A DNA stretch of 64,000 nt from an uncultured bacterium. Its GTDB lineage: Bacteria > Bacteroidota > Bacteroidia > Chitinophagales > Chitinophagaceae. The stretch is from positions 1 through 64,000 of the forward strand of contig CAXYYO010000011.1 of NCBI GenBank assembly GCA_964293305.1, read 5' to 3'. Below are positions 10,558 through 58,327 of the stretch, one piece after another. Position 1 is the stretch's first letter. Each line of letters begins with the position of its first letter. Made by a program: the position numbers and the translations under genes. The notes beneath the pieces are model-generated. The model was not told the DNA's origin. It saw only the letters and a list, made by a program, of their open reading frames with translations, and did no database searches.

Positions 10558-10652
10558 ATATTTTTATCAGCCAGCATAAAACTCTCTTTATTTGTATTTC
10601 TTTTTTATAACAATCAGAATAATCCATTTATTCTTCTTAAACAGTAACAATT

Positions 10653-13935: not shown

Positions 13936-13973
13936 TTCTATGTTTTCACTACTCAAACTTAAATTAAAATTTG

Positions 13974-31526: not shown

Positions 31527-31806
31527 GATGTACCCATGATGTAGTTGAAATTGGTCAAAAATAAGGGCATTAGTTAAATGTTGTAGATGGGTTGTAGCCT
31601 ATTTTTTGGTAGTAGCATACGTTGAATTTTAAGTTTGCAGCCTAATATTATTTAAAATATTAAACAAACGATTGCAGCATTTCCTACACGGTTACTTTCA
31701 CAACATCAATATGGCAGCTATACATATTGATGGATAATGTAAAGTCCAATTGTCATGCTTGTTGTATGTTTTAGATAAAACTAAATTATTAAAAATTACT
31801 CCTTTT

Positions 31807-34800
31807 ATGAAGAAGATTTCGACGCTTGTTTGTCTCCTAGTATGTACTCAAATGCTATTTGCTCAGCAAGATATTATTACTGTCAAACATGGTGCCGATG
31901 GCCACCGATTAACAGTAAATGGAAAAGATTTTATTGTTAATGGTATGAACTGGGATTATTTTCCAATTGGTACTAACTTCACCTATAGTCTTTGGAATCA
32001 ACCTGCAGATATCATCAAAGCTGCTTTAGATTATGAAATGCCCTTGCTAAAAAATATGGGTATAAATACTATTCGTCAATATACAGGAGTACCAGCAAAG
32101 TGGATTAAATATATATATGAAGAATATGGAATTTATACAATGCTCAATCACAGTTTTGGAAGATATGGTCTTACTCTAAGCGGAGCTTGGTTTCCAAATA
32201 CAAACTACTCTGATCCAAGAGTAAGTGAATTATTAATTAAAGAAGTAAAAGCAATGACTGAGGAATATAAAAATACTCCTGGTTTATTATTATTTCTATT
32301 GGGCAATGAAAATAACTATGGTCTTTTTTGGAGAGGGGCTGAAACAGAAGATATGCCGCAGGAAGACAGGCAATCTACAAAAGATGCCTTCTATCTATAT
32401 AAACTATTTAACGATGCCGTTAAGGAAATGAAATCTATCGACAAAAACCATCCAATGGCTATTTGTAATGGAGATTTACTCTTCTCAGAAATTATAGCAA
32501 AAGAGTGTACTGACATTGATATACTTGGTATTAACTCATATAGAGGAATCAGTTTTACAGATTTATACCAAAAGGCAGCAAAAACAATCAACAAACCTGT
32601 TGTATTAACTGAGTTTGGCGCAGATGCCTACAATGCACAAGGCAATAGCGAAGACCAAGAATACCAAGCAAAAGTTTTGGTGAAAAACTGGAAAGAAATA
32701 TATGCTAATGTGGCCGGTATGGGAAATGCCGGAAACAGTATTGGAGGATTTACCTTTCAGTTTAGCGATGGCTGGTGGAAAACAGGACAAACTGTAAACT
32801 TAGATGAGCATGATCCAGCAGCTTCTTGGTCAAATGGTGGATATCAAAATGACTTTGTAAAAGGTGAAAACAATATGAATGAGGAGTGGTTTGGTATCTG
32901 TGCAAAAGGACCAAACAACGAAAGAGGTATATATCAATTATATCCTCGTGCTGCATATTATGCATTGAAAGAATTACATGAGTTTAATCCATACAGTGAT
33001 GCTGCAAAAACGCAGATTAATGTCATTGATAATATACAAATTACTGATGCAGCTTTAAGAGCCAGAGGTGATAAAGCAGCTCTAGATGCAGAACAAAAAA
33101 GTAAAGTCTATTTAAGTGATTTGCAAGCAAATTTTACAACTTATAACACAGGCGGTTCTTTGATTTCAACACCAAAGGAAGCTGACCCTGCAAACAACGG
33201 TTATCCAAACCGTTTGGGCTTTGACCATATGCAGTCATTCAATATTGGTATTACAGCCAAACCTGCTCCAAACATGACAGCTAATGTACAGTTTAATGTA
33301 TTGGGAAATGTAGCTGAAAATCCAATAGATGAAGTATTTTATGAGAATAGAGGAAGAAGAATAACAGTAAGTACTCCAACTGGCCCTCAACAAATAAATT
33401 CTAACAATAGGGTGCAGTTATATAGAGCAAGTTATACTTGGGATACCAAGTATTTTAACGTAAATGGTTTTTATCGTACCGGTCATTATCATTGGGGATA
33501 TGAAGGGGATTTCTTTGGTCTTTATCCGGAAGCAAACTACGGACCAAATATTGATATATATAATGGCGATGCCCCTTCTGGTTTTGAAATAAAAGGCAAG
33601 AAATTTTTAGACGGTTTTAAATTAGCTTTTGGACCTGAATTGTGGTGGGGAGCAAACCCGGCAGTATTATTGAAATATTCCAAAAAACTGGCTGGATTTC
33701 AGGTGTCAACAGTTTTTCATGAAGACCTTACTCAGCGTTCTGGCATTCAAAGTTCCATAGCAATACCGCAACCCAAAACAAGAAGACTTTCTCTGGCTAT
33801 CGAAAGAAAAGCAGGTAAAGTTGGTGTATCAGTTGGTGGCTTATGGGCAGGCCAACCATTGAATGGCCGCACTTTCCAAGTGGTAAGAGGCACAAAAGAT
33901 AATTATGAAATATTTCAAGACCAGATAAAAGCAGAGGATAATTTTGGTGGTAAGGTAAAATTGACCTACGAAGGTGGAGTTTTCAAATGGTATGCATCAG
34001 GAGCTGCAATGGGTTTAGTAGCAAATGGTGGTTATGATAATACAAAAACATATACCGGATGGAGATTGAAAGATAATGGAAGCGGAAATATGTATAATTT
34101 CCTTTCTGGCTTTACAGTTAATGTGGGTAAAATTCAAATAGCTCCAAATTTCTTATGGCAGAAACCAATTGAAGGACCTATTCCAACAGACGTGCCTGCT
34201 CCGGGTCGTGCAAGAAATATTCAAGATGATCCTTTTTCTGTAAGAATAAATAGAGAAACAGTAGCTGGAGAACTATTATTGACTTATGATCCAACCCCTG
34301 GTACTTGGATGTATGAATGGGATAATGACAGAGCAGAAGATGCAAAATTTGCTATGAGTCTTGACTTTGTATATAGACATTTACCAACTACTCAAGATGC
34401 TGCTATTGGTATTCTTGCAAATGGACGTACCACATTCGCATTTCCCGGTGCTGCACCGGCTTTAGACCTTTGGGAAACAAACCTGAGAATGGTATCTAAA
34501 ATAAATCCCGAATTTGGTATAATAGGGAATATTTATGTAGGAAATGGTCAAGCAAATGGTAGCAATGCCAGAACCATTGATAGGTTTGGTGGAGACATTA
34601 GAACTATTTATAAAAAAGTAAAATTAATGGGTGTAGCAAAGTTCAATGATTGGGGCCCTTTTGACTATCATAGGGACTTTAACCTTACATTCCCATTACA
34701 GCTAATGTTAGATTTATCTACCGAATTGGGCAAGCCAGATTGGTTTCTTTTACCAGGCACTCGCCTAGGAGTAAGAGGTACATACAGAACACTTGATAAA

Positions 34801-34935
34801 TATTCACCACGATACGCACCTACATACACAGTAGGCCCAGACGGAAACCCTGTACCAGATCCAAATGCAATAGGCTACCCCAATGGCAATGAGTGGGAAA
34901 TAAGGACTTACATACAAATAAACATAGGCAAATAA
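31807..34935 (+). CDS. secreted clan GH-A (GH5-like, TIM-barrel) glycoside hydrolase domain fused to a ~640-aa C-terminal β-strand-rich, porin-like region
   Basis: The start is at the internal Met (MKKISTLVCLLVCTQMLFAQ signal). The catalytic-acid motif is LLFLLGNENNYG and the nucleophile motif is VVLTEFGADAY. The C-terminal half is Gly/Asn/Tyr-rich with alternating amphipathic strands (KVKLTYEGGVFKWYASG, RLSLAIERKAGKVGVSVGG). Confidence 0.6.
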   Translation: MKKISTLVCLLVCTQMLFAQQDIITVKHGADGHRLTVNGKDFIVNGMNWDYFPIGTNFTYSLWNQPADIIKAALDYEMPLLKNMGINTIRQYTGVPAKWIKYIYEEYGIYTMLNHSFGRYGLTLSGAWFPNTNYSDPRVSELLIKEVKAMTEEYKNTPGLLLFLLGNENNYGLFWRGAETEDMPQEDRQSTKDAFYLYKLFNDAVKEMKSIDKNHPMAICNGDLLFSEIIAKECTDIDILGINSYRGISFTDLYQKAAKTINKPVVLTEFGADAYNAQGNSEDQEYQAKVLVKNWKEIYANVAGMGNAGNSIGGFTFQFSDGWWKTGQTVNLDEHDPAASWSNGGYQNDFVKGENNMNEEWFGICAKGPNNERGIYQLYPRAAYYALKELHEFNPYSDAAKTQINVIDNIQITDAALRARGDKAALDAEQKSKVYLSDLQANFTTYNTGGSLISTPKEADPANNGYPNRLGFDHMQSFNIGITAKPAPNMTANVQFNVLGNVAENPIDEVFYENRGRRITVSTPTGPQQINSNNRVQLYRASYTWDTKYFNVNGFYRTGHYHWGYEGDFFGLYPEANYGPNIDIYNGDAPSGFEIKGKKFLDGFKLAFGPELWWGANPAVLLKYSKKLAGFQVSTVFHEDLTQRSGIQSSIAIPQPKTRRLSLAIERKAGKVGVSVGGLWAGQPLNGRTFQVVRGTKDNYEIFQDQIKAEDNFGGKVKLTYEGGVFKWYASGAAMGLVANGGYDNTKTYTGWRLKDNGSGNMYNFLSGFTVNVGKIQIAPNFLWQKPIEGPIPTDVPAPGRARNIQDDPFSVRINRETVAGELLLTYDPTPGTWMYEWDNDRAEDAKFAMSLDFVYRHLPTTQDAAIGILANGRTTFAFPGAAPALDLWETNLRMVSKINPEFGIIGNIYVGNGQANGSNARTIDRFGGDIRTIYKKVKLMGVAKFNDWGPFDYHRDFNLTFPLQLMLDLSTELGKPDWFLLPGTRLGVRGTYRTLDKYSPRYAPTYTVGPDGNPVPDPNAIGYPNGNEWEIRTYIQINIGK

Positions 34936-34942
34936 TTTCTAT

Positions 34943-36805
34943 ATGAAAAAGAACATAAATAAACATTTCATCGTATTAGCACTGCTAGCTCTGACCATAG
35001 GATGTAAAAGAGAGCTGTCCGACTTAGAATCTGCAGCATATCCAACAACATCCGCAGTTTTCTTGGACGATTTTACCGGAGACCTTATCTATGCTGCATT
35101 TGGTGGCTCAGATGTAAGAGCATTTCAAGTAGTAAAAGAAGATACTTATGGCGGTTCTGCTGCCGCAATGCGTTTTGATGTGCCGGATGAAAATAGCCCA
35201 AAAGGCGCATTTGCAGGAGGTGCATTCTTTAGCAGAACAGGAAGGGACCTCACGGGATACAATGCACTTACATTTTATGTAAGAGCATCACAACCGGTAA
35301 ATATTGGTGTAGTTGGATTTGGTAATGATTTTGGCGAATCAAAATATGTAACTTCCATTAGTGGGGTACCTGCAAATACAAACTGGCAGAAGGTAATTAT
35401 TCCAATTCCAGACGCTTCAAAACTTTCTGCGGAAAGAGGTTTGTTTTATATTTCAGCAGGTGCATTAAATGGAAGAGGTTATACCATTTGGGTGGATGAA
35501 TTACAATTTGAAAACCTTTCAAATCTTTCACCTGTTACAGGTCTGATTGCATTGGGTAAGGATAGTGTAATAAATGGTGCAGAAAATGAAAGCACATATA
35601 GCACTGGCGCTTTTCAAGCAAGCGCTAATTTACCTTCAGGTATCAACCAAGTTGTAAATACTACCGCAAATTTTTTCACTCTAATTGCTTCAAACTCAAG
35701 TGTAGCAAGTGTAACAGAGAACGGTATAATTACAGTACTTGATTCAGGTCAATCCATCATCACTGCAAAACTTGGTGATCAAGACGCAAAAGGTAGCATT
35801 ACTATCAATGGTGTTGGTGCGGGAATAAAGCCTGCCACAATTGCTCCTGTGCCTTCTTATGATCCGGCAAATGTCATATCAATGTATTCAAATGTTTATC
35901 CAAATGAACCGATAGATACTTGGAATACAAGATGGTTGTATTCTACTGCTGAAAATGATTTCATCAGCCTATATGGTGATGATGTAATCAAATACAGAAG
36001 TTTGAATTTTGTAGGTATAGAATTTACATCCCAACCAATAGATGCTACTGAAATGACAAATTTCCGTATGAATATATGGACACCAGACCCTACTAATTTA
36101 CCAAATAATTTTAAAGTATTGTTAGTTGATTTTGGTGCAAATGGTGTGTTTGGCGGAGGTGATGATGCATCCTCGGAGCTTACATTTACAAGTCCTCTAT
36201 TAGTAACAAATAATTGGGTTACTATTGATGTGCCATTAAGTAGTTTTACTACATTAACTACAAGAGCACATTTAGCACAGTTAGTACTTTCAGGTACTTT
36301 ACCAAACGTTTTTGTAGACAACGTATTGTTCCATAAAATTTCATCAGAACCTACAGTTGCTGCACCTGTTCCAACTTATAATTCAGCAGACCTATTATCC
36401 ATTTTAAGTGATAGTTATACAAATCTGGCTGGAACAGATTTCAATCCAAATTGGGGTCAGGCTACTGTAGTTTCTCAAAAACCTATTGCAGGAAATAATA
36501 CACTTGTATATAAAGGATTAAACTATCAAGGTACACAGTTTGCCTCTGCACAAAATGTATCCGATAAAACATATCTGCACCTTGACTATTATACTACAAA
36601 TTCAACCAGTTTGAAAGTATATTTGATTAGTGCAGGTCCTGCGGAAAAACCCTATACACTCACAGTGCCATCAGGGTCTGGATGGAGAAGCGTTGATATA
36701 CCGTTATCATCATTTGCACCCACCGTGGATTTAACCAAGGTGATACAGATGAAATTTGATGGCAATGGAGATATTTACCTAGACAATATCTTATTTAGAA
36801 AATAA
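34943..36805 (+). CDS. surface lipoprotein with an N-terminal β-sandwich domain, a Big_2-like Ig domain and two CBM-like repeats (candidate surface glycan-binding protein)
   Basis: It has a lipoprotein signal ending in a Cys (LALLALTIGCKRE). Two internal repeats share ...Y(D/N)xA(N/D)(V/L)(I/L)S(M/I)(Y/L)S(N/D)xY...W...IEF(T)...(M/H)...W. It is homologous to 49810-52158 throughout. Confidence 0.65.
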   Translation: MKKNINKHFIVLALLALTIGCKRELSDLESAAYPTTSAVFLDDFTGDLIYAAFGGSDVRAFQVVKEDTYGGSAAAMRFDVPDENSPKGAFAGGAFFSRTGRDLTGYNALTFYVRASQPVNIGVVGFGNDFGESKYVTSISGVPANTNWQKVIIPIPDASKLSAERGLFYISAGALNGRGYTIWVDELQFENLSNLSPVTGLIALGKDSVINGAENESTYSTGAFQASANLPSGINQVVNTTANFFTLIASNSSVASVTENGIITVLDSGQSIITAKLGDQDAKGSITINGVGAGIKPATIAPVPSYDPANVISMYSNVYPNEPIDTWNTRWLYSTAENDFISLYGDDVIKYRSLNFVGIEFTSQPIDATEMTNFRMNIWTPDPTNLPNNFKVLLVDFGANGVFGGGDDASSELTFTSPLLVTNNWVTIDVPLSSFTTLTTRAHLAQLVLSGTLPNVFVDNVLFHKISSEPTVAAPVPTYNSADLLSILSDSYTNLAGTDFNPNWGQATVVSQKPIAGNNTLVYKGLNYQGTQFASAQNVSDKTYLHLDYYTTNSTSLKVYLISAGPAEKPYTLTVPSGSGWRSVDIPLSSFAPTVDLTKVIQMKFDGNGDIYLDNILFRK

Positions 36806-36832
36806 TTTTCATCATAGCAAATAATCATTCAA

Positions 36833-37675
36833 ATGAAAGCAATTTATAAAATTTTTAATCGTACACATGCACTACAATATACATTATTGTTTGCATTAGT
36901 TGGCTTATTTTCAAACTGTAAAAAAGAAAGCAAACAAACATTACTTGAAAGATCATACAAATTAGTGTGGAGTGATGATTTTGATGGAATAGCTGGCACG
37001 GCCCCTGATGGTGCAAAATGGACTTATGATATCGGTGCAGGGGGTTGGGGAAATCAAGAGTTACAGTATTATAGTAATAGTACAGAAAACGTATCTCATG
37101 ATGGATTTGGCAACTTACTTATAACAGCTACAAACAAAGGTACTGGTGGTGCTCCATTCACTTCTGGGCGAATAAAAACACAAGGTTTGTTTGGCCAAGC
37201 TTATGGAAGAATTGAGGCAAGATTAAAAACTCCGTCTGGCCCAGGTATTTGGCCTGCTTTCTGGATGCTTGGTGAAGATATCACAACAAATCCATGGCCG
37301 GCATGTGGGGAAATAGATATCATGGAATTAAGGGGTCAAGAGCCATATATCATAAATGGTACTTTACATGGTCCCGGCTATTCTGGTGGCAATTCTGTAA
37401 CAAAAACATATACACTTACAGAAGGCAGATTTGATACAGACTATCACATTTATGCCGTAGAATGGGGCACAGACTATATTGATTTCTTTGTGGATGATTA
37501 TTTATATAATCGTCTTACCCCAGCTGATCTTGCAGGTGAGTGGGTGTATAATAAACCATTCTTTTTAATTTTAAATATAGCAGTGGGCGGTACTTATGTT
37601 GGCTTCCCCACTTCAGGCACATCATTCCCTCAATCTATGGTTATAGACTATGTAAGGGTTTATGATGAACAATAA
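36833..37675 (+). CDS. GH16 family β-glucanase (laminarinase-like) lipoprotein
   Basis: It has the GH16 catalytic motif E-I-D-I-M-E (CGEIDIMELRG) and a lipoprotein signal (LFALVGLFSNCKKE). Confidence 0.85.
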   Translation: MKAIYKIFNRTHALQYTLLFALVGLFSNCKKESKQTLLERSYKLVWSDDFDGIAGTAPDGAKWTYDIGAGGWGNQELQYYSNSTENVSHDGFGNLLITATNKGTGGAPFTSGRIKTQGLFGQAYGRIEARLKTPSGPGIWPAFWMLGEDITTNPWPACGEIDIMELRGQEPYIINGTLHGPGYSGGNSVTKTYTLTEGRFDTDYHIYAVEWGTDYIDFFVDDYLYNRLTPADLAGEWVYNKPFFLILNIAVGGTYVGFPTSGTSFPQSMVIDYVRVYDEQ

Positions 37676-37797
37676 ATCCTGTTAAAAACTTTAGGAGTTG
37701 ATAAGATACTTTTCAACTCCTTTTTTATGAATTAATTTTTCAACCCTATTCTCTTAACTATCTCTTCTCTAACAAAAATTACACTGACGAATATTAA

Positions 37798-40700
37798 TTG
37801 TACATGACCACTACGATGCTTGAAACAGTTGAAATAAACAACGAAGCGTTTTTTAAAATTTCTGATACGGATGCTATGCGCCCATTCTTTATGAGCATTG
37901 TGAGCAATTCGGATCATTGGATGTTTGTATCTAGCAATGGAGGAATTTCCGCAGGAAGAAAAAATCCTGACAATGCATTCTTCCCTTATTATACAGATGA
38001 TAAAATAACCGAGCATGCAGAAAACACAGGCAGCAAAACGATATTTCAAATCAGTAAAGGAGGCACTACCTATTTATGGGAGCCATTTTCCAATCGGGGC
38101 GAAGGCCGTTATGATATTACCAGAAATATTTATCAAAATAAGTGGACAAATAAGGTACTCTTTGAAGAAATAAATCTTGACCTTCATCTTACATTCCAAT
38201 ATGAATGGAACAGTAGTAATCTATTTGGATTTGTAAAACAATCTAGGTTATTTAATAACTCCACTGAAACCATAGATGTAAAATTGGTAGATGGTTTTCA
38301 GAATATCATTCCAGCTGGTGTACCCTGCGATTTACAAACAAAAACCAGTAATCTGGCTGATGCTTATAAACGGTCAGAACTACTGCCAGCATTGGGTATT
38401 GGCATTTTTGCATTGAGTGCAATCATAGTTGATAAAGCTGAACCAGCAGAAGCACTTAAAGCAAATATTGCATGGAGTGTAGGTTTAGATAATGCGGTTT
38501 ATCTTCTTTCCCCCAACCAACTCAAAGCTTTCAGACAAAATCAAAATATATATCAAGAAGAGGATATAAAAGGAGAGAAGGGAAGCTATTTGGTAGTAAG
38601 TAATTTATCCCTTGAAGCAGGAGTACAAAAGCACTGGATGGTGATTGGTAACCTGAACCAAAATCATTCCGCGTTAGCGGCATTGTCAAACCAAATTTCT
38701 ACTGACAATGATCTGAAACATAAAATACTTGCAGATATTGAAGCGGGTACACATCAGTTAAAACAGTTGACTGGAGCGGCAGACAGTTTTCAATATACCG
38801 CTGATAAACTAAATGATACTAGGCATTTTTCCAATGTATTATTCAATATAATGCGTGGGGGTATCTTTGACAATAATTATCAAATACACAAAAAAGATTT
38901 TTTACAATATCTCCAAAAAGCAAATAAAATAGTATATCAAACTGTACAACCTGAGTTATCAAATCTTGCGGATGAATTTTCACTTTTTGGATTAAAAAAT
39001 ATTGCAGCAGCTTCGTTAAATCCTGATTTTATTAGACTGGCCACAGAATATCTGCCTCTAAAATTTAGCCGCAGACATGGTGACCCAAGTAGACCATGGA
39101 ACCAGTTTTCAATAAATATTAAAAACGAAAATGATGGGTCAGAAATATTAGATTATCAGGGTAATTGGCGAGACCTATTTCAAAATTGGGAGGCACTGGC
39201 CTACTCCTATCCCTCTTTTATTGAAGGCATGATTTCTAAGTTTTTAAATGCCACTACTTTTGAAGGGTATAATCCATATCGTGTTACAAAAGATGGCTTT
39301 GACTGGGAAACGATAGAACCTGATAATCCCTGGAGTTATATTGGCTACTGGGGCGATCATCAAATTATTTATTTATTAAAATTTTTAGAATTTTCAGAAC
39401 AACTGGATGCAGGTTCAATATCAAAAATGTTGGCAAAAAGGAATTTTGTATATGCCAATGTGCCTTATAAAATTAAGGCATATCAAGACATTGTAAAGCA
39501 TCCAAAAGACACTATCGAATTTGATCACCTTAATGAGAAAAATATACATGTAAGGATACAAGCAATGGGAGCAGACGGGGCATTGCTACAAAATCTTTCC
39601 GGTGAAATATATCGGGTAAATTTCCTAGAGAAAATACTGGCAACGCTACTCTCAAAATTATCGAATTTTATACCGGAAGCTGGCATTTGGATGAATACAC
39701 AAAGGCCAGAAGGGAATGATGCCAACAATGCATTAGTGGGCAATGGAGTATCCATGGTTACTCTATGCTATCTCCGAAGATTTTTAAAATTTTTACAGCC
39801 TGTACTTGCCAATATTGCAAAGCAAAATATTCCAATATCAAAAGAGCTTTATACGCTCTTTAATGATCTATCAAATATCTTTTCAAACAACCTAACATTA
39901 CTCTCTGCGCCTATTTCTGATAAGGATAGAAAAATCATAACTGATGCATTGGGTGAAGCAGGAAGTGCATATCGAATCCAGATTTATGAGCATGGTTTTT
40001 CTGCTGAAATGAAGGAAGTATCCGGTGCTGAACTCATTTCACTTGTTAATCATTCAATACAATTTGCAGAGCACACAATAAGAGCTAATAAAAGAAAGGA
40101 TGGTTTATATCATGCCTACAATCTTTTGAGTTTTGATGGAGAAGCAGTTCGCATTGCTTACCTCAGTGAAATGTTAGAAGGGCAGGTGGCTGTGCTAAGT
40201 TCAGGTCTGCTTTCTCCAAAAGAAAATGCTGAAGTATTAGAAGCATTAAAGAATAGTGCATTATACAGAGCAGAGCAAAACAGCTATATCCTATATCCCA
40301 ATAAATCATTACTAAAATTTTCAGAAAGAAATACGATACCCAATACAGCTGTACAAAATTCAGAGCTACTTAAGAAACTATTAAATGACAATAGTACGGC
40401 TATCCTAGAAAAAGATATAAATGGCCAGTATCATTTCAATGGCAATTTTAAAAATGCAGGCGATTTATTGATTGGTTTAAATAGACTAAGTGCAAAATAT
40501 CAATTGCTTGTAGCCAAGGAAAAAAGCATTGTTCTACAAATATTTGAAGACGTTTTCAATCACAAAGAATTTACTGGAAGGTCGGGTACATTCTATGGTT
40601 ATGAAGGCTTGGGTTCTATATACTGGCATATGGTTTCAAAATTGGGAGTGGCGGCTATGGAAGTTTGTTTGCAGGCCATTCAAGATAATGCAGATGGGGA

Positions 40701-45448: not shown

Positions 45449-45470
45449 ATTTAAAATAAATTTTCAATAC

Positions 45471-47813
45471 ATGTCAAACCATACAGGATCAGTTGCTAAA
45501 GTACCCATGATTCAAAAAATAGCTTTCGGACTTGGCATGCTTGCCAATCAAATGTTTCCGGCAGCTTTGGGCATATTCATGGTAGTGCTGGTAGAAGATT
45601 TAAAATTTCCTGCATGGATGTGGGGTTTCTTATTTTTTGTACCACGCATATTTGATGCTTTTGTAGATCCCATCATGGGTTTTATAACTGACAATACCAA
45701 GTCAAAGTGGGGAAGAAGAAGGCAGTATGTATTTGCTGGTGCCATTCTAATGGGCATTTCATTTATTGCCATGTGGCAGCTATACAGAGAAAATGGTATT
45801 GATTATAATTTCATTTATTTCCTCATCTGGTCTTTTCTGTTTTATTTAGGATTATCAATATTCAGTGTACCTTATGTAGCCATGGGATATGAAATGAGTG
45901 ACGATTTTCATGAGCGCACAAGTATCATGGCCATTTCCCAATGGATTGGTCATTGGGCTTGGGTTATAGCACCTTGGTTTTGGGTGGTTATGTATGATAA
46001 AGGGTGGTTTGTAAATGCCGATACAGCCACAAGAACGCTGGCTATATGGGTAGGTGTGGTTTGTATGCTACTCGCCATGACGCCTGCCTTTTTTATTAAA
46101 AGTAAATCTACATTAAACGAAGAGAGTTATACACCATTAAGTATGAAAACAATTGGTGGTAGTCTCAAAGAAATATTTGAAAGTTTTAAAGAAGCATTCA
46201 AGCTTAAAGCATTTAGAAAACTCTGTATAGCTACATTTTTTATCTTCAATGCATTCAACACAGTAGCAGGGTTTACTTTCTTCATTGTTGTATATCATTT
46301 GTTTGGCGGCAAAGCAGAAGATGCGGGTATCTGGCCTACATTATTTGGTAGTGTGGGTGCATTGGTTACTACATTTATTGTTATTCCAATAGTCTCTTTT
46401 ATTTCAAAGAAAATGGGTAAAAAATCTGCGTTCTTGTTATGTCAGGGCATATCCATTCTTGGTTATATTATGTTGTGGTTTTTCTTTATCCCGGGCAAGC
46501 CATATATGTTTCTTTTTGCATTACCATTTTTCTCTTTTGGCATAGGAAGTTTATTTACTTTGATGATGAGTATGACCGCAGATGTATGCGATATGGATGA
46601 ACTTTCATCAGGAAAAAGAAGGGAAGGAATTTTTGGTGCTATCTATTGGTGGATGGTGAAATTTGGGTTTGCCATTGCAGGTTTATTAACCGGAGTTATT
46701 ATGTCTGGGGTTGGCTTTGTGCCGGGTGCAGACACACAGGCAGATGGCGCTATTACAGGGCTACGATTATTTTTCTCAGGCATACCCATTGCAGGTACAT
46801 TAATAGCCATGTGGGTAATGCGAAATTATGATTTGAATGAAGAAAAAGCTAGAGAAATAAAAGCAGAATTAGATAGAAGAAAAGCTAGTCCAAAAATATC
46901 TTCTGGATACCAGGCCGGAAATTTGTGGCAGAGAGCAAGCCATCTTCAACTGCCTCATTTTACAGGAGCCCCCTTACAGCAAATGACTGAAGATAAAATT
47001 AAAGAAATGTTTGCCTTTCAACTAAAAAAAGGAGTACATGGTCTATGTTTTAGTCCTTATCTTGAAGGTCAAGATGCAGGGGATATATTGATTGAATCAG
47101 AAACAAAAGCAAGGGTGGAAATTGTGGCGCCTCATACCCAGTGGGTCCGTTCTTTCTCAACTACAGCAGGTCATGAAATCATTCCATCATTTGCAAAAGA
47201 AAAAGGACTGAAAACAGTAGCCGGGGCATGGATAAGTAATGATAAATTGCAAAATGAAAAAGAAATTGCAAACCTTATACAACTTGCAAAAGCGGGTAAA
47301 GTTGATATAGCAACAGTAGGCAATGAAGTTTTGCTGCGCAATGAATTAAATACAGCTGATCTTGTAGCATATATTAACAAGGTAAAGGAAGCAGTACATC
47401 CGGTGCCGGTTAGTTATGTTGATGCCTATTTTCAATGGATAGAACATCCGGAGTTGATAGATGCTTGCGATATGGTGATGATAAATTGCTATCCATTCTG
47501 GGAGGGTTCATCAATCGAAAATAGCTTGGATGATTTACGAAAAATGTATTTACTGATGAAGCAATCTGCTCCAAATAAAAAAGTTATTATTGCAGAAACC
47601 GGATGGCCAAGTGAAGGGGATAATATAAATAATGCAACACCCTCTACGCTGAATGCTCAAAAATATTTTCTAGCAGTACAGGAATGGGCTATCAAAGAAA
47701 ATATTGAGCTCTTCTATTTTTCATCTTTTGATGAAACATGGAAAATAAAACAAGAAGGAGCATTGGGAGCTAGATGGGGCATTTGGAATAAGGATGAAAA
47801 ATTAAAATATTAA
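45471..47813 (+). CDS. GPH family symporter (aa ~1-470) fused in frame to a C-terminal GH17 domain (aa ~490-780)
   Basis: The N-terminal half has ~12 TM helices and the signature DPIMGFITDNTKSKWGRRRQYVFAGA. The C-terminal half has the GH17 motifs ATVGNEVLLRN and IIAETGWPSEGD. It is closely paralogous to 47828-48724, and both end ...WGIW(N/D)K.E.LKY. Confidence 0.75.
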   Translation: MSNHTGSVAKVPMIQKIAFGLGMLANQMFPAALGIFMVVLVEDLKFPAWMWGFLFFVPRIFDAFVDPIMGFITDNTKSKWGRRRQYVFAGAILMGISFIAMWQLYRENGIDYNFIYFLIWSFLFYLGLSIFSVPYVAMGYEMSDDFHERTSIMAISQWIGHWAWVIAPWFWVVMYDKGWFVNADTATRTLAIWVGVVCMLLAMTPAFFIKSKSTLNEESYTPLSMKTIGGSLKEIFESFKEAFKLKAFRKLCIATFFIFNAFNTVAGFTFFIVVYHLFGGKAEDAGIWPTLFGSVGALVTTFIVIPIVSFISKKMGKKSAFLLCQGISILGYIMLWFFFIPGKPYMFLFALPFFSFGIGSLFTLMMSMTADVCDMDELSSGKRREGIFGAIYWWMVKFGFAIAGLLTGVIMSGVGFVPGADTQADGAITGLRLFFSGIPIAGTLIAMWVMRNYDLNEEKAREIKAELDRRKASPKISSGYQAGNLWQRASHLQLPHFTGAPLQQMTEDKIKEMFAFQLKKGVHGLCFSPYLEGQDAGDILIESETKARVEIVAPHTQWVRSFSTTAGHEIIPSFAKEKGLKTVAGAWISNDKLQNEKEIANLIQLAKAGKVDIATVGNEVLLRNELNTADLVAYINKVKEAVHPVPVSYVDAYFQWIEHPELIDACDMVMINCYPFWEGSSIENSLDDLRKMYLLMKQSAPNKKVIIAETGWPSEGDNINNATPSTLNAQKYFLAVQEWAIKENIELFYFSSFDETWKIKQEGALGARWGIWNKDEKLKY

Positions 47814-47827
47814 ATCAACACATATAT

Positions 47828-48724
47828 ATGTCATTTAGAAAAGAAAACATATTATCACTTCGGCCAGATTCAGCAAGTAGCTATGTAGCCGGTGAATCAG
47901 AAGATACGCTTAAAGATTTATTTGCAGAAATAATGCAAAATGGGGTACATGGATTTTGTTTCAGTTTATATGAAGATGGACAAAAACCGGGTGATATCAT
48001 TTCTGAGGCACAGGTGCGTCGCCGCATGAATATCTTAAAGCCGCATACAAAATGGATACGTTCATTTTCCTGCACAGAGGGAAATGAATGGATACCTCGA
48101 ATAGCTAAAGAAATGGGCATTAAAACCCTAGTAGGTGCATGGCTTGGCAATGATCCTGAAATTAATAAAAGAGAAATTGAAGGATTACTTCAGTTAGCCA
48201 AAGAAGGTTTGGTAGATATTGCTGCGGTGGGCAATGAAGTGATGTACAGAAAAGATCTTACCGAAGATGAATTACTCGAATTCATCCACCATGTAAAATC
48301 TGAAATACCACATATACCCGTTGGCTATGTAGATGCATATTATGAGTTTTCTCATAGACATAGAATTACAGAAGCTTGCGATGTTATACTCTGCAATTGT
48401 TATCCATTCTGGGAAGGATGCCCCATTGATAATTCATTGGATTATATGAAGCAAATGTATTATCAAGCCAAAGCGGCAGCCAATGGAAAGGAAGTAATCA
48501 TAACAGAAACGGGCTGGCCAAGTATGGGTGAAACGCTCAAAGGCTCTGTACCATCAGAAAAAAGTTCAAGAGATTATTTTATTAATACACAATTATGGTC
48601 AGCCAATGATAATATACCCACATTCTATTTTTCATCTTTTGATGAGTCTTGGAAGGTAGGGGCGGAAGGTGTGGTAGGCGCTTACTGGGGCATTTGGGAT
48701 AAGCATGAAAATCTGAAATACTAA
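47828..48724 (+). CDS. GH17 family protein without signal peptide (predicted cytoplasmic)
   Basis: The 298-aa ORF has AAVGNEVMYRK and IITETGWPSMGE. The N-terminus MSFRKENILSLRPDSASSYVAGESED has no hydrophobic leader. Confidence 0.8.
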   Translation: MSFRKENILSLRPDSASSYVAGESEDTLKDLFAEIMQNGVHGFCFSLYEDGQKPGDIISEAQVRRRMNILKPHTKWIRSFSCTEGNEWIPRIAKEMGIKTLVGAWLGNDPEINKREIEGLLQLAKEGLVDIAAVGNEVMYRKDLTEDELLEFIHHVKSEIPHIPVGYVDAYYEFSHRHRITEACDVILCNCYPFWEGCPIDNSLDYMKQMYYQAKAAANGKEVIITETGWPSMGETLKGSVPSEKSSRDYFINTQLWSANDNIPTFYFSSFDESWKVGAEGVVGAYWGIWDKHENLKY

Positions 48725-48726
48725 GC

Positions 48727-49668
48727 ATGAATTTTTTTGATCAATATGGCTTGAAGCCTGCAAAAGCAATTTGCTATTCCGGGTTTAGAAATGGGCAGCA
48801 GCCGGGCAGCATCTATCCGTCTTATGAGGAGGTGAAAGAAGATTTGTTATTACTTCAAAACGAATGGAAATATCTTCGCTTATATGATTGTGATACTCAT
48901 GCGCAAACAGTTCTTGATGTTATTCATAAAGAACAGTTTGATTTTAAAATAATGCTTGGGGCGTATATAGAAGCTGAAATGAATAATTTTGGTTGCCCTT
49001 GGGGGGGTGGTGTTTTTGAGGAAAAGCAATTGGAAGTAAATGCTCTACGCAATGAGCAGAAAATAAAACAACTCATTGAATACGCAAATCAGTTTCCCGA
49101 TATTATTTTTTCCTTATCTGTGGGCAATGAGGCTTGTGTTGATTGGACAGATCATTTTGTGCCTGTAAGCAAAGTAGCTGAGTATGCCAATTTGGTAAAG
49201 AAAAATGCCAAACAGCCAGTTACATTCTGCGAAAACTATTTGCCTTGGATCAATCAATTGAAGCCTGCCATTGAAGCATTTGATTTTATATCCATACATA
49301 CTTACCCAGTATGGGAGTATAAGCATATTCATGAATCAATAGAATATACAAAGCAAAATTATTATGCTGTAGCTAATCAATTTCCTGATAAAATTGTTAC
49401 CATAACAGAAGCTGGATGGGCTACCAATTCAAATGGAAGAGGTATAAACCCAGAGCATGTGAATGAAGAAAATCAAAAGATATATTTTGAAAGTCTGATG
49501 GAATGGAGTGAAAAGGAAAAAATATTGACCTGTTTTTTTGAAGCATTTGATGAACCTTGGAAAGGCTCAAATCATCCTATGGAACCAGAAAAGCACTGGG
49601 GATTATTTAGGGAAAATAGAAGTCCTAAGTTGTCAATGCAGCACAAAAATATCCTCACTTTTAATTAA
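48727..49668 (+). CDS. GH17 family protein without signal peptide (predicted cytoplasmic)
   Basis: The 313-aa ORF has LSVGNEACVDW and TITEAGWATNS. The N-terminus MNFFDQYGLKPAKAICYSGFRNGQQPG has no leader. There is a 2-nt gap from the upstream gene. Confidence 0.75.
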   Translation: MNFFDQYGLKPAKAICYSGFRNGQQPGSIYPSYEEVKEDLLLLQNEWKYLRLYDCDTHAQTVLDVIHKEQFDFKIMLGAYIEAEMNNFGCPWGGGVFEEKQLEVNALRNEQKIKQLIEYANQFPDIIFSLSVGNEACVDWTDHFVPVSKVAEYANLVKKNAKQPVTFCENYLPWINQLKPAIEAFDFISIHTYPVWEYKHIHESIEYTKQNYYAVANQFPDKIVTITEAGWATNSNGRGINPEHVNEENQKIYFESLMEWSEKEKILTCFFEAFDEPWKGSNHPMEPEKHWGLFRENRSPKLSMQHKNILTFN

Positions 49669-49809
49669 ATATTTTTATGAAATATTTTCTACAAACAGAA
49701 GCATCAAAATGCTTAGAAAAAATTGGAAAGGCTCCGCCTTAATTGTCTTTCTGCAATTATCGAACCCTCTGTACTTAAAAACGTTTTTCCACTATTTAAA
49801 AAATAAACT

Positions 49810-52158
49810 ATGTTTAAAAAATTTACATGCATGCTCAGCCTTCTGGTATTTGCCTTATCAGCAAATGCACAGTTGGTAGTATTTTCGGATGATTATGCTC
49901 CAGGCGTAACATTCGCAGCTTTTGGTGGCTCCACCAACACACTTTCTATTGACAATAGTCAAAGTTATTCAGGTACTTCTTCTCTAAAAATACCTGTTAC
50001 TGCCGGCTATACAGGTGGTGCATTAGTAGCCCCTGCACCCACAGATTTAAGCGCTTACACAGCACTCACATTTTGGGCAAAAAATGATAATCCAGCATTC
50101 AAATTAGATGGTGTGGGTATTGCCAACAATGCAACCACTACCGTATATGCAGTAGAGCGCAATGGTGTAGTGCTATCAGCTACATGGACCAAGTATTATA
50201 TCCCAATTCCTGTTGCTTCAAAGCTTACTGCAGAAACTGGTCTATTCCATTTTGCAGAAGGAGCTGGTGAGGGTGCATATAATATTTGGATAGATGATAT
50301 TCAATATGAAAATGTATCAAGTATCCTCTTAGGAACCCCAACTGCAGCATTTGCTACTGAATCAATTACAAAAGCTGCCGGAGAAGGATTTAATCCAAAT
50401 GGTACCGTTTCTACTTATCCTATTGTAGCAGAAGGTGCCATGCAAACTGCTAGACCTTATTTTACATGGATGAGTTCAAATAGTGCTGTAGCAACCATCG
50501 ACAACTTAGGAGCTGGTACAGCAGTAGCACAAGGTACAGCTACCATATCAGCCATGCTGGGAACTATTGCCGCAGCAGGCAGTCTTACTGTAAATGTTAC
50601 AGCTCCATTGGAACAACCTTCAGCACCTGCGCCTACTCCTCCTGCTAGAAATACTACTGATGTAATTTCACTTTTCAGTAATGCATATTCAAATAACGCG
50701 GTGGATACTTGGTCAACAGGTTGGAGTAGTGGCAATCATAAATACACAGAATTGCAGATAGCTGGTAACGATACAAAAAAATATGAACTCTATCATTTTG
50801 CCGGAATTGAATTCTTTGCAGCTCCAGTTGATGCTACAAATATGGAATTTATGCATTTAGATGTTTGGACATCTAATGGTACAAGCCTTGATGTTAGGTT
50901 GGTAGATTTTACTGGTGTTTCACCCACCGAAGCTACAGTTACAAGTGCAACAGCAACTGGTCAATGGGTTGCTTTAGATATTCCGCTTAGCAGTTTCACA
51001 ACACTAAGTTCAAGATCAAAATTGTCCCAAATGCTTTTATTGGTTCCACCAAGCACTTCGGCAACATATTTTGTAGATAACATATACTTCTACAAGGGAG
51101 GTGGTTCTATGGGTTCTGAACCAACAACAGCAGCCCCAACACCTACAGGAAACCCAGAAGGTGTTATATCTTTATTTAGCAACGCCTATACAAATGAACC
51201 GGTAGATACATGGTCTGCACCATGGGATCAAGCTGATGTAGCTGATGTACAAGTGGCAGGTGATGATACAAAAAAATACACCAATCTAACATTTGCAGGT
51301 ATAGAGTTTACAACTAATCAAATTGATGCTTCAACAATGGATTATTATCATGTTGATATCTGGACACCAGATGCTACAAATTTTAATATCAAGTTAGTTG
51401 ATTTTGGTGCTGATGGAGCTTATGCCGGTGGAGATGATACTGAATCTGAATTATCTTTTACACCTACACTTAGTGGATGGGTTAGTTATGATATTCCTTT
51501 GGCAGACTTTACCGCACTAGCATCAAGAGCACACCTTGCACAGATGTTATTTATATCTTCTACCAGCACAGTTTATGTAGATAATGTTTACTTCTATAAC
51601 AAACTACTTCCTGTAAGCTTTAGCGGCTTTAATGTAAGTAAGAAAGGAAACACTTCATTACTAAAATGGAGTACCGCTACTGAAATAAATAATAAAGGAT
51701 TTGCAGTAGAAAGAAGTACAGATGGCAATAGTTGGAAAGAAATATTATTTGTAAAATCAACTGTTGTAAACAGTACTTCAACAAATAACTATACTGCTAC
51801 AGATGCTTTACCAATACAAGGCAAGAATTATTATCGTATCAAACAAGTAGATCTTGATGGAAAGTCAACCATCACCAATGTACAGAGTTTAGACTTCGAT
51901 AAAATTGGAAACATTTTCTCTGTATATCCAAATCCGGTTAGAAATATCATGAATATCAAACTGGGTCAGATACAAAATAATGCAGTGAGTTACCAATTGA
52001 TGAGCAGTAATGGTAAAGTAGTATTGAATGGTAAATTTGATAAGCAACTGTCCCTTACAAGCCAAACTTTAAATGTAAGTAATTTGGCACACGGCACATA
52101 TATCATGATGCTTGCTGATGGTAGTCAAAAACAAACAATGACAATCATTATCAATTAA
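49810..52158 (+). CDS. T9SS-secreted paralogue of the 34943-36805 glycan-binding protein (β-sandwich + Big_2 + two CBM-like repeats + T9SS type-A C-terminal sorting domain)
   Basis: It has a signal peptide (MFKKFTCMLSLLVFALSANAQ). The repeats are RNTTDVISLFSNAYSNNAVDTWS... and NPEGVISLFSNAYTNEPVDTWS... The C-terminal ~80 aa carry the T9SS CTD hallmark SVYPNPVRN and end ...GTYIMMLADGSQKQTMTIIIN. Confidence 0.75.
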   Translation: MFKKFTCMLSLLVFALSANAQLVVFSDDYAPGVTFAAFGGSTNTLSIDNSQSYSGTSSLKIPVTAGYTGGALVAPAPTDLSAYTALTFWAKNDNPAFKLDGVGIANNATTTVYAVERNGVVLSATWTKYYIPIPVASKLTAETGLFHFAEGAGEGAYNIWIDDIQYENVSSILLGTPTAAFATESITKAAGEGFNPNGTVSTYPIVAEGAMQTARPYFTWMSSNSAVATIDNLGAGTAVAQGTATISAMLGTIAAAGSLTVNVTAPLEQPSAPAPTPPARNTTDVISLFSNAYSNNAVDTWSTGWSSGNHKYTELQIAGNDTKKYELYHFAGIEFFAAPVDATNMEFMHLDVWTSNGTSLDVRLVDFTGVSPTEATVTSATATGQWVALDIPLSSFTTLSSRSKLSQMLLLVPPSTSATYFVDNIYFYKGGGSMGSEPTTAAPTPTGNPEGVISLFSNAYTNEPVDTWSAPWDQADVADVQVAGDDTKKYTNLTFAGIEFTTNQIDASTMDYYHVDIWTPDATNFNIKLVDFGADGAYAGGDDTESELSFTPTLSGWVSYDIPLADFTALASRAHLAQMLFISSTSTVYVDNVYFYNKLLPVSFSGFNVSKKGNTSLLKWSTATEINNKGFAVERSTDGNSWKEILFVKSTVVNSTSTNNYTATDALPIQGKNYYRIKQVDLDGKSTITNVQSLDFDKIGNIFSVYPNPVRNIMNIKLGQIQNNAVSYQLMSSNGKVVLNGKFDKQLSLTSQTLNVSNLAHGTYIMMLADGSQKQTMTIIIN

Positions 52159-52226
52159 GTTAGAAAATAAAATTCACCATTTTTTGGTGAAAAAATATTG
52201 CTGAAATAGATTCAGATAATATGTAG

Positions 52227-52258
52227 AGAGGCTGTCTTTTTAGGCAGCCTCTTTTTTT
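52227..52258 (+). terminator. rho-independent terminator closing the β-glucan locus
   Basis: AGAGGCTGtctttttaggCAGCCTCTTTTTTT. Confidence 0.8.
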
Positions 52259-58295: not shown

Positions 58296-58327
58296 TTTTC
58301 TAGTCTATAATTTTATTTTATATATTT

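Follow-up and report, generated by a model that had tools for sequence, protein, structure and literature searches.

A laminarin utilization cluster without SusC/SusD that begins with a predicted glycosidase-β-barrel fusion, a candidate for passage of β-glucan across the outer membrane

Few fluxes of fixed carbon in aquatic systems are larger than that through laminarin, and the SusC/SusD pair serves as the marker of its uptake by Bacteroidota. How, then, could laminarin enter a cell through a gene cluster that has the appropriate enzymes but no such pair? We have analysed a cluster of this kind in 64,000 nucleotides of DNA (the window) from an uncultured bacterium; this is a portion of a metagenome contig and not a whole genome, and the nearest named relatives of the contig belong to the Chitinophagaceae. 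Protein families were called using Pfam and NCBIfam, with PDB sequence matches for the weak cases, and localization was assigned by reading N-termini by eye together with hydropathy, rather than with dedicated predictors.

Eleven genes, all on the + strand, run from 31807 to 52158 (Table 1). The start at 31807 is an ATG within an ORF that opens with TTG at 31750. A terminator-like hairpin lies at the end of the run; two such sites were observed where 0.3 would be expected. The arrangement predicted from the sequence, in which one co-directional run is flanked by a divergent regulator and a terminator, is confirmed by ORF calling and the hairpin search. Annotation with Pfam and NCBIfam upheld every family in that original prediction, i.e. 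the clan GH-A enzyme, GH16, GH30, four GH17 domains and two GPH/MFS symporters, with PDB matches in support. The two CBM-type proteins are paralogous as proposed (33% identity over about 630 aa, E = 3e-89 by BLASTP), and a synteny search found the same gene order in most of 80 related genome loci, picked by similarity to the protein encoded by the first gene. Like a PUL, the locus combines co-localized CAZymes with proteins that bind glycans at the surface and with a regulator of its own, and it is very probably a catabolic laminarin cluster of known type with cytoplasmic end-processing.

Table 1. Coordinates of the features of the cluster within the window, with the basis of each assignment.
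Feature	Position	Strand	Basis
BguR-type membrane-spanning one-component regulator	28572..31526	-	Pfam, hydropathy, synteny
Divergent control region, putative operator and promoter	31527..31806	.	TGTAG / GATGTAG repeats, then TTTTTTGG
1042-aa secreted GH158-like/outer-membrane β-barrel fusion (predicted)	31807..34935	+	Pfam, signal, model
Predicted ~600-aa outer-membrane β-barrel, about 24-26 strands, undescribed family	33133..34932	+	AF2, fold matches
620-aa lipoprotein with repeated CBM-like modules, presumed surface glycan-binding	34943..36805	+	Lipobox LTIGC, weak Pfam
GH16 endo-β-1,3-glucanase lipoprotein	36833..37675	+	Pfam 81.9 bits, lipobox LFSNC
GH149 β-1,3-glucan/oligosaccharide phosphorylase, no signal peptide (cytoplasmic)	37798..41223	+	NCBIfam, PDB
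GH17 lipoprotein, orthologue of endo-β-1,3-glucanase FbGH17A	41223..42473	+	PDB 6FCG, signal with Cys
GH30 (GH30_1-like, glucosylceramidase-like) with lipoprotein signal	42466..44019	+	Pfam, PDB matches
GPH/MFS_2 sugar:cation symporter, stand-alone	44006..45448	+	Pfam 230 bits
GPH/MFS_2 symporter with C-terminal GH17 (FbGH17B type)	45471..47813	+	Pfam, NCBIfam TIGR00792
Signal-less GH17	47828..48724	+	Pfam 39.3 bits, PDB 4WTP
Signal-less GH17, FbGH17A-like paralogue	48727..49668	+	PDB 6FCG E 1.7e-25, Pfam 23.4 bits
782-aa secreted CBM-repeat protein, Big_2 and T9SS C-terminal sorting domain	49810..52158	+	Pfam, NCBIfam
Intrinsic-terminator-like hairpin, end of gene run	52225..52254	+	13-bp stem, 6 GC pairs, T-run

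The regulator begins with a signal/TM segment, followed by a Reg_prop β-propeller (33 bits), a Y_Y_Y domain (52 bits), one TM segment at residues 755-773 and a C-terminal GerE/LuxR HTH domain that scores 17.7 bits, below the Pfam cut-off. No kinase or receiver domain (HisKA, HATPase or REC) was found by Pfam. The propeller/Y_Y_Y/LuxR composition that had been proposed is thus borne out by Pfam and hydropathy. Allowing for the weak GerE match, the predicted architecture is that of BguR, a membrane one-component regulator of β-glucan utilization (bioRxiv 10.64898/2026.01.10.698779, Bartosik et al. 2026), with which it shares the signal peptide, β-propeller, Y_Y_Y domain, single TM segment, GerE HTH, lack of phosphorelay domains and position beside a laminarin cluster. 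Deletion of BguR in F. agariphila abolishes growth on laminarin (bioRxiv 10.64898/2026.01.10.698779). The regulator here differs in being divergently transcribed, and its binding to the TGTAG repeats is only putative. These repeats lie with TTTTTTGG at about 31520-31620, and similar repeats are found 5′ of the orthologous first gene in five related loci (L005, L008, L030, L046 and L084); the region is a putative operator and promoter. Homologous regulators adjoin the same cluster in 28 of the 44 loci with full flanks, and the median identity to the regulators of related loci is about 28%.

The proteins of the surface and periplasm are consistent with an attack on branched β-1,3-glucan. The CBM-like lipoprotein has weak Pfam matches to CBM_11, Big-like and SGBP_B_XBD; it carries a lipoprotein signal, while its paralogue at the end of the run has an SPI signal and a T9SS domain. 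The GH16 translation contains the EIDIME motif, and the GH17 lipoprotein matches the crystal structure of FbGH17A (PDB 6FCG) with E = 1.7e-162. The GH30 protein matches GH30 and GH30C with 267.8 bits in Pfam, and is presumed to be an exo-β-1,6-glucosidase cutting off side chains. FbGH30, in the same cluster position, has demonstrated activity (PMC6246565).

Four domains can be assigned to GH17, by either Pfam or their match to 6FCG. Two score 47.0 and 39.3 bits, and the GH17 lipoprotein (23.0 bits) and the FbGH17A-like paralogue (23.4 bits) fall under the cut-off of 28.2 bits and both match 6FCG. In the fused symporter MFS_2 covers residues 19-457 and GH17 residues 684-780. The GH17 domain comes after TM12 of a full-length GPH-type MFS; no TM segment lies beyond residue ~457, and the domain is predicted to be cytoplasmic. 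The stand-alone symporter is 49% identical to the MFS half of the fusion, and the first free GH17 protein is 50% identical to the fused GH17 domain. An MFS-GH17 fusion (FbGH17B) has already been described (PMC6246565). The expectation that three of the four GH17 domains are cytoplasmic is supported by inference from signal-less N-termini and topology. From its sequence, the 1141-aa signal-less protein left unnamed in the original prediction is a GH149 phosphorylase, matching the NCBIfam equivalog NF058639 over residues 7-1136 (1688 bits, cut-off 1150) and the Pro_7066 structure (PDB 6HQ6) with 1430 bits; its true start is likely the ATG at 37816. The presence of a cytoplasmic phosphorylase strengthens the reading that import is followed by cytoplasmic processing, and with the GPH symporters and cytoplasmic GH17 enzymes of the locus this is the best reading.

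It had also been suggested that part of the locus might synthesize or remodel an intracellular or periplasmic β-glucan, GH17 enzymes being the transglycosylases of NdvB-type cyclic β-glucan synthases. Such a pathway, leading to a cytoplasmic storage glucan or a periplasmic cyclic one, would draw on GH17 transglycosylases and on GH149, whose reaction is reversible. An NdvB-type synthase combines GT84, a GH17 transglycosylase and a GH94-type phosphorylase in one large membrane protein. No GT domain was found in any gene of the cluster, the GT84 and GH94-type modules are absent, and each GH17 domain is either a small protein of its own or part of a symporter fusion. Pfam and NCBIfam identify no glycosyltransferase or synthase in the locus or next to it, so that biosynthesis is unsupported there; the only GTs of the window, a GT4 and a small GT2, belong to an unrelated glycan cluster at a distance of over 22 kb. 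The first free GH17 protein is closest to β-1,3-glucanosyltransferases, the nearest being fungal (PDB 4WTP, E = 8e-33), its Muricauda counterpart MlGH17B is a transglycosylase making β-1,6-branched oligosaccharides for which the authors speculate on storage (PMC13188888), and GH149 is reversible in vitro (PMC5827456), all of which would suit synthesis. Yet external laminarin induces the orthologous cluster as a whole and FbGH17B acts as an exo-glucosidase (PMC6246565), and the F. agariphila regulator is needed for growth on laminarin (bioRxiv 10.64898/2026.01.10.698779). We consider an anabolic locus improbable; a side role of the cytoplasmic GH17 transglycosylase in making branched storage oligosaccharides, on which others have speculated in print, is conceivable.

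For a catabolic cluster the question of outer membrane passage is then central. Verified SusC/SusD pairs of related loci served to build two HMMs, one for the Plug domain and one for SusD, which were run on all ORFs of the window. No SusD-like ORF was found among these, and the Plug HMM found a single TonB-dependent receptor, at 58328-61138 on the - strand. This was rejected as a SusC; it carries OMP_b-brl_3, TIGR04056 matches its N-terminus only, and its partner is a Beta_helix_4 protein. Pfam, NCBIfam and the HMMs reveal no adjacent susC/susD of the canonical Sus-like PUL in the locus or the 64-kb window, and none lies in the 9.3 kb beyond it, supporting the original view of a β-1,3/1,6-glucan (laminarin) locus without its own pair.

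The first gene suggests how passage might be achieved. An SPI signal (residues 1-21) precedes a GH158-like clan GH-A catalytic TIM barrel at about residues 24-390, in which the predicted catalytic residues are E168 (acid/base, in NEN) and E269 (nucleophile); in Pfam this domain gives a weak match to Glyco_hydro_2_C, i.e. a clan GH-A TIM barrel. A helix and linker at about 400-476 lead to the C-terminal domain, for which a β-barrel had been suspected. AF2 models this domain confidently (pLDDT 91.6; the full-length model is poor, with pLDDT 57), and every one of its top fold matches is an outer-membrane barrel. Hydrophobic and polar side chains alternate along the predicted strands. As modelled, the protein has the signal peptide, closed antiparallel barrel, lipid-facing hydrophobic face and predicted membrane localization of outer-membrane barrels in general. 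The hallmark of a TonB-dependent transporter or SusC is an N-terminal Plug domain inside a 22-strand barrel, and a Plug domain is absent from this barrel.

A transmembrane antiparallel β-barrel is the fold of AlgE, PgaA, BcsC, chitoporin, maltoporin, LptD, FimD/PapC and TonB-dependent transporters, and several of these conduct glycans. Conceivably the fusion could be part of an exopolysaccharide export system, as an AlgE/BcsC/PgaA-like secretin with a periplasmic hydrolase like BcsZ or PslG. The fold matches do not single out such secretins, since much the same scores are obtained with porins, TonB-dependent transporters, ushers and LptD. Moreover, a synthase, co-polymerase and TPR scaffold are absent nearby, and the genes that invariably adjoin the fusion encode a CBM-type binding protein and a GH16; beyond these come catabolic enzymes and importers. 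Export is thus very improbable.

The barrel gene, the CBM lipoprotein and GH16 form a triad that is present in every locus with enough downstream sequence (63/63), and one 6.5-Mb genome retains only the regulator and the triad. At least 594 stretches of species-representative genomes were confirmed to contain relatives. No other protein of the cluster is as well conserved as the fusion (median identity 65-68%, compared with 28-63% for the others), a ranking biased by selection of the loci with this protein. Fusion homologues also occur in β-glucan operons of Myxococcota, together with an ABC importer and GH1, GH16 and GH3 enzymes, and no TonB-dependent receptor was found in those operons. We know of no use of SusC/SusD systems by Myxococcota. 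LptD-LptE and SusC-SusD provide precedents for a large barrel with a lipoprotein partner. It is quite possible, if short of probable, that the barrel is the route across the outer membrane. More tentatively, the fusion and CBM lipoprotein could constitute a new class of outer membrane glycan entry device, enzyme-gated and TonB-independent, bringing β-1,3-glucan into the periplasm in Myxococcota and in Bacteroidota that lack SusC/SusD for it.

We note that a barrel with 24-26 strands would have to carry a plug or lid, neither of which was identified; it could serve only as a membrane anchor.

Import might instead be performed by a co-regulated SusC/SusD pair elsewhere, like those of PUL 1 and PUL 3 in Formosa B, with the barrel only anchoring an endo-β-1,3-glucanase. 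The contig covers a small part of the genome, and in 4 of the 80 related loci a verified pair lies within 10 kb, beside the triad. In Formosa B laminarin induces two pairs at separate loci (PUL 1 and PUL 3), with 'selfish' periplasmic uptake (PMC6246565). On the other hand, the remaining 76 loci are without SusC/SusD within 10 kb, and the same fusion is found inside complete β-glucan operons of Myxococcota. A ~600-aa barrel with 65% median identity across orders far exceeds the need for a lipid anchor, and other surface enzymes of the locus are anchored simply as lipoproteins. We regard uptake by a distant pair as a serious contender that falls somewhat short of likely. Since four related loci carry SusC/SusD by the triad and Formosa B induces pairs elsewhere, the fusion coexists with SusCD in some genomes and is not a plain substitute for it.

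Taken as a whole, the likely explanation is a laminarin utilization cluster of the Formosa 'PUL 2'/Muricauda type, operating by the following route. By analogy with the F. agariphila experiment, the BguR-type sensor would detect periplasmic β-glucan and activate the divergent operon. Judging from families and signals, the CBM lipoprotein and its T9SS-anchored paralogue would bind laminarin, and the GH16 lipoprotein would cut it. Fragments may then pass the outer membrane through or next to the fusion barrel, probably with its invariant lipoprotein partner, while the fused, putative endo-β-1,3-glucanase domain trims the chain at the channel; here the barrel fold comes from modelling, and the channel role and the membrane side of the enzyme are inferred. 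The GH17A-type endo-glucanase and the GH30_1-like β-1,6-glucosidase, whose Formosa orthologues are active, would debranch and shorten the oligosaccharides. These would be imported by the two GPH symporters and converted by the fused GH17, the two free GH17 enzymes and GH149 to glucose and glucose-1-phosphate in the cytoplasm.

The cluster is known in outline, and the copy in the window mainly extends its host range to a Chitinophagaceae-like and probably non-marine organism. The useful lead is the first gene, the most conserved and annotated as 'GH2' or hypothetical. The enzyme-barrel fusion seems to be unrecognized in the published work on these clusters that we consulted; in the Muricauda lutaonensis paper the first gene was taken as a soluble 'GH2 β-glycosidase' and its C-terminal domain was undiscussed. 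The Formosa protein at the equivalent position (an orthologue by gene order, without sequence comparison) ranks with the PUL proteins that laminarin induces most strongly in the membrane fraction (196-fold, 1.19 %riBAQ; PMC6246565). The fusion offers a testable answer to outer-membrane crossing in SusCD-less laminarin clusters. If it is an entry device such clusters would be self-sufficient, and surveys that count SusC/SusD may miss an uptake route.

The non-canonical type of locus first envisaged is not supported as novel, as the same SusC/SusD-less order has been published. In Formosa sp. Hel1_33_131 'laminarin PUL 2' (FORMB_24670-24750; Unfried et al. 2018, PMC6246565, Table S3) the order is GH2-like hypothetical, hypothetical, GH16, PKD, GH149, GH17A, GH30, MFS-GH17, GH17, with no SusC/SusD in the published list. 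All of its proteins are laminarin-induced in proteomes, and FbGH30, FbGH17A and FbGH17B were assayed as a debranch/endo/exo cascade (PMC6246565). The cluster in the window has the same order and families from the GH2/GH158-like protein to GH17, orthology being based on gene order and related flavobacterial loci without direct sequence comparison. It has in addition a stand-alone GPH symporter and two cytoplasmic GH17 enzymes encoded by free genes, so that split and fused copies of the MFS/GH17 module are both present. It also has a terminal T9SS-anchored CBM protein in place of the internal PKD protein. The hosts differ as well, that of the window being Chitinophagaceae-like and that of PUL 2 a marine flavobacterium.

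The cluster of Muricauda lutaonensis (with MlGH17A and MlGH17B) comprises a LuxR-type regulator, 'GH2', GH16, GH149, a GH17 lipoprotein, GH30_1, MFS and a cytoplasmic GH17 (PMC13188888, PMC11005184), again with no SusC/SusD in the published list (PMC13188888); its authors discuss cytoplasmic processing and possible storage oligosaccharides (PMC13188888, PMC11005184). Its GH30 is without a signal peptide, whereas that of the window has a lipoprotein signal. The MFS-GH17, cytoplasmic GH17 and GH149 of the Formosa and Muricauda counterparts have been described or assayed, and a 2018 paper had remarked on Bacteroidetes GH149 'CAZyme clusters lacking susCD' (PMC5827456). The 1,3GUL of Bacteroides uniformis has SusC/SusD with an HTCS regulator, a BuGH158 lipoprotein with an Ig-like domain and periplasmic end-processing by GH3 (PMC7157763). 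Both loci are dedicated to β-1,3-glucan, with a surface GH16, an endo-laminarinase of GH158 type (in the window a putative, GH158-like one) and surface glycan-binding proteins; the present locus, by contrast, lacks SusC/SusD, carries its GH158-like domain in a barrel fusion, and would complete processing in the cytoplasm with GH17 and GH149.

ORF calling with Pfam and NCBIfam profile searches bore out almost throughout the original prediction of a unidirectional β-glucan cluster with a divergent regulator. The run on the + strand spans 31807-52158, its junctions being short or overlapping, and is closed by a hairpin (see table). Two of the four GH17 assignments score under the Pfam cut-off, but are secure because they match the crystal structure of the Formosa enzyme FbGH17A (6FCG; E 1.7e-162 and 1.7e-25). 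The two CBM proteins of the locus are true paralogues (E 3e-89). The 1141-aa protein, which the prediction left unnamed, is assigned by sequence as a β-1,3-glucan phosphorylase of family GH149: its score of 1688 bits on the NF058639 equivalog model exceeds the NCBIfam cut-off of 1150, and its match to 6HQ6, the structure of Pro_7066, reaches 1430 bits.

Features of the locus, of its surroundings and of two myxococcal loci
Feature	Position	Strand	Description
Glycan-biosynthesis cluster	1427-9552		GT4, two sulfotransferases, MBOAT acyltransferase, small GT2
Sortilin-type protein	13971-17138	+	1055 aa; Sortilin-Vps10 and BNR/Asp-box repeats
Divergent regulator	28572-31526		Reg_prop, Y_Y_Y, one transmembrane segment, weak GerE match
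Repeats between regulator and operon	31520-31620		TGTAG / GATGTAG(T) repeats, then TTTTTTGG
Run gene 1	31807-34935	+	1042 aa, secreted; weak GH2-type TIM-barrel match
Run gene 2		+	620-aa lipoprotein; weak CBM matches
Run gene 3		+	GH16 lipoprotein with EIDIME motif
Run gene 4		+	1141 aa, signal-less; GH149
Run gene 5		+	GH17 lipoprotein
Run gene 6		+	GH30 with lipoprotein signal
Run gene 7	44006-45448	+	GPH/MFS_2 symporter, stand-alone
Run gene 8	45471-47813	+	Second GPH/MFS_2 symporter, GH17 domain at C-terminus
Run gene 9	47828-48724	+	GH17, signal-less
Run gene 10		+	GH17, signal-less
Run gene 11		+	782 aa, secreted; Big_2 and T9SS sorting domain
Closing hairpin	52225-52254		13-bp stem and T-run
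GSDH	55291-56727	+	Glucose/sorbosone dehydrogenase; T9SS C-terminal sorting domain
Receptor's partner	within 56889-61138	-	468-aa lipoprotein, Beta_helix_4 family
TonB-dependent receptor	58328-61138	-	936 aa; CarboxypepD_reg, Plug, OMP_b-brl_3
Fusion gene in L085 (Myxococcota)	8001-11315		Operon: ROK regulator, GH16, SBP_bac_5 ABC importer, GH1, GH3
Fusion gene in L086 (Myxococcota)	8001-11219		GH1, GH16, ROK regulator

Three of the GH17 domains, and the GH149 protein, carry no signal peptide. The MFS-GH17 fusion shares ~50% identity with the stand-alone symporter in one half and with the first free GH17 in the other, so that the window holds split (genes 7 and 9) and fused (gene 8) copies of one module in tandem (44006-48724). 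In related loci the module is usually either split or fused. Both termini of GPH transporters are cytoplasmic. The transporter part of the fusion is a complete GPH type; the fusion point comes after its TM12, and no hydrophobic segment lies beyond. This and the signal-less free paralogue favour placing the fused GH17 domain in the cytoplasm, as had been predicted for the cytoplasm-facing GH17 enzymes. A cytoplasmic GH149 phosphorylase fits a catabolic role for this end of the pathway. The original prediction had also allowed a biosynthetic role like that of NdvB. We consider this improbable; the locus has no synthase, and the only glycosyltransferases of the window lie in an unrelated cluster at 1.4-9.6 kb.

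HMMs for SusC and SusD were built from Pfam-verified proteins in related loci and run on every ORF of the window. No SusD was found, and the only TonB-dependent receptor is that at 58328-61138; the cluster itself contains no SusC- or SusD-like gene. Nor was either present in the 9.3 kb past the right end of the window on the same metagenome contig (89,196 bp; ENA ERZ24875810 NODE_46), a stretch that encodes OmpA, T9SS proteins and a two-component pair. The defining SusC/SusD pair is missing from the cluster, as originally stated. The lone receptor and its 468-aa partner were considered as the missing pair and rejected. They are of the OMP_b-brl_3 and Beta_helix_4 types respectively, the SusC model TIGR04056 covers only the N-terminus of the receptor, and both are encoded on the opposite strand with unrelated genes (GNAT, an AraC regulator and GSDH) between them and the cluster. 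Their domain content places them as a non-SusC/SusD type of pair.

The suggestion that the C-terminus of the first gene product resembles a β-barrel proved right. This domain of ~600 residues has no meaningful match in Pfam (E≤1) or among PDB sequences (profile search, E≤10), and the model of the full-length protein was poor (pLDDT 57). Re-modelled alone using the collected distant relatives, the domain gave a mean pLDDT of 91.6 and a pTM of 0.89, with ~26 long antiparallel strands in which hydrophobic and polar residues alternate. It contains 11% glycine and zero cysteine, and the protein carries an SPI signal. The Formosa counterpart by gene order showed 196-fold induction in the membrane fraction (PMC6246565). 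The model supports an outer membrane barrel, fused to a predicted enzyme, the GH158-like N-terminal domain. AlgE was the top fold match among many equally distant barrels; this is the sole basis for reading the fusion as an export secretin, which we regard as very improbable indeed.

The family of the first gene product is very large, with >5500 matches, and at least 594 stretches of species-representative genomes were confirmed as relatives. Among the matches listed, relatives of 61-78% identity occur in Chitinophagales, Flavobacteriales, Bacteroidales, Cytophagales, Saprospirales and Balneolales. The nearest named homologues among them are from Chitinophagaceae and Ferruginibacter (74-78% identity), and the taxonomic placement is based on these. 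Some distant relatives consist of the barrel domain alone (~560-620 aa), with no glycosidase domain (P0164, P0232, P0159 and P0182), while P0241 has an extra N-terminal CBM_4_9 and P0124 a longer N-terminal extension.

Eighty genome loci were retrieved with the first gene product, and annotated using the window proteins as queries. Barrel protein, CBM lipoprotein and GH16 follow one another in that order in all 63 loci with at least 3.5 kb downstream. Where at least 8 kb was available on both sides (44 loci), GH149 was present in 36, GH30 in 32 and a BguR-like regulator in 28, and a SusC-like gene in only two. One 6.5-Mb genome keeps the regulator and this triad and nothing else of the cluster. 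Over the 80 loci the barrel protein is the most conserved of the cluster (median identity 67.6% for its N-terminal domain and 65.0% for the barrel), a figure that is inflated, this protein having served to rank the loci. The corresponding values are 63% for GH30, 59% for GH17A, 58% for GH149, 55% for GH16, ~50% for MFS, 42% for the CBM lipoprotein and 28% for the regulator.

The main alternative is that import is performed by SusC/SusD pairs elsewhere in the genome, the barrel being a mere anchor; we judge this a serious possibility, if somewhat short of an even chance. It accords with the biology of Formosa, whose laminarin-induced SusC/SusD pairs are those of PUL 1 and PUL 3, elsewhere in its genome (PMC6246565). 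A Pfam-verified SusC/SusD pair is present in four of the 80 loci, all flavobacterial, lying upstream of the triad in two and downstream in two (L045, L055, L064 and L078), so that both systems coexist in some genomes; this too speaks for the alternative. Against it, a nearby SusC/SusD pair is rare, and a barrel of 600 aa is costly and conserved where a lipid anchor would suffice. The enzyme-barrel fusion is also present in Myxococcota and Bradymonadia. In Corallococcus coralloides its operon comprises a ROK regulator, GH16, an SBP_bac_5 ABC importer, GH1 and GH3, with no TonB-dependent receptor, and a second myxobacterial locus is similar; these operons also argue against the alternative. Two small conserved ORFs follow the fusion gene in both L085 and L086. 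We note that import through the barrel and by SusC/SusD pairs elsewhere are not mutually exclusive.

In the pathway that we propose, the CBM proteins would bind laminarin at the cell surface, where GH16 would cut it, and the fragments would cross the outer membrane via the barrel. The latter probably partners the invariant lipoprotein, as SusC does SusD or LptD does LptE. The GH158-like domain would shorten the chain, which GH17A and GH30 would go on to process while it is still outside the cytoplasm. Import by the GPH symporters would then bring the sugar to the cytoplasmic GH17 enzymes for hydrolysis or disproportionation, and phosphorolysis by GH149 would yield glucose-1-phosphate. We found no description of a GH158 or GH2 barrel fusion in the open-access literature, and one may exist elsewhere; the fusion is a concrete candidate for glycan entry independent of SusCD.

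The regulator has, from its predicted domains, the architecture of the one-component β-glucan regulator BguR. A k-mer search upstream of the first gene found TGTAG-type repeats that are only partly shared among the loci. They recur in L005, L008, L030, L046 and L084 (i.e. loci with a divergent regulator), while flavobacterial loci share CTATACATTA and GTGTATGTTTTTTGTAG instead. These motifs are suggestive, and may be a putative BguR operator.

Elsewhere in the window, the product of the glycan-biosynthesis cluster may be a sulfated or sphingolipid-linked glycan; one of its proteins matches the N-terminal domain of eukaryotic glucosamine inositolphosphorylceramide transferase (GINT1_N, E 1e-47). 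The sortilin-type gene has a LolA-like gene just before it and one for an FtsX-type permease after it. The sorting domain of GSDH predicts secretion or attachment to the surface.

The locus shares the described gene content and regulator architecture of known systems. PUL 2 of Formosa Hel1_33_131 (FORMB_24670-24750; Unfried et al. 2018, Table S3, PMC6246565) encodes in order a hypothetical protein (elsewhere 'GH2 family'), a second hypothetical, GH16, PKD, GH149, GH17, GH30, MFS with GH17, and GH17. Its published gene list contains no SusC/SusD, its induction is laminarin-specific, and its three-step cascade comprises debranching by FbGH30, endo-cleavage by FbGH17A and exo-cleavage by FbGH17B, the MFS-fused domain. 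Kuhaudomlarp et al. (2018, PMC5827456) placed Bacteroidetes GH149 in 'CAZyme clusters lacking susCD-like gene pairs', and described cytoplasmic GH17 for proteobacterial type II clusters. A Muricauda cluster reported in 2026 (PMC13188888) contains LuxR, 'GH2', GH16, GH149, the lipoprotein MlGH17A, GH30_1, MFS and the cytoplasmic transglycosylase MlGH17B; its authors speculated on storage oligosaccharides, the second idea of the original prediction. Deletion of BguR abolished growth of F. agariphila on laminarin (bioRxiv 10.64898/2026.01.10.698779). The original interpretation is thus borne out in part: a laminarin locus lacking SusC/SusD, with cytoplasmic processing, stands as the most likely reading, the NdvB-like part is improbable for want of a synthase, and novelty is forestalled by the Formosa and Muricauda reports; together with those on GH149 and BguR, they make this locus a further case of a known laminarin cluster.
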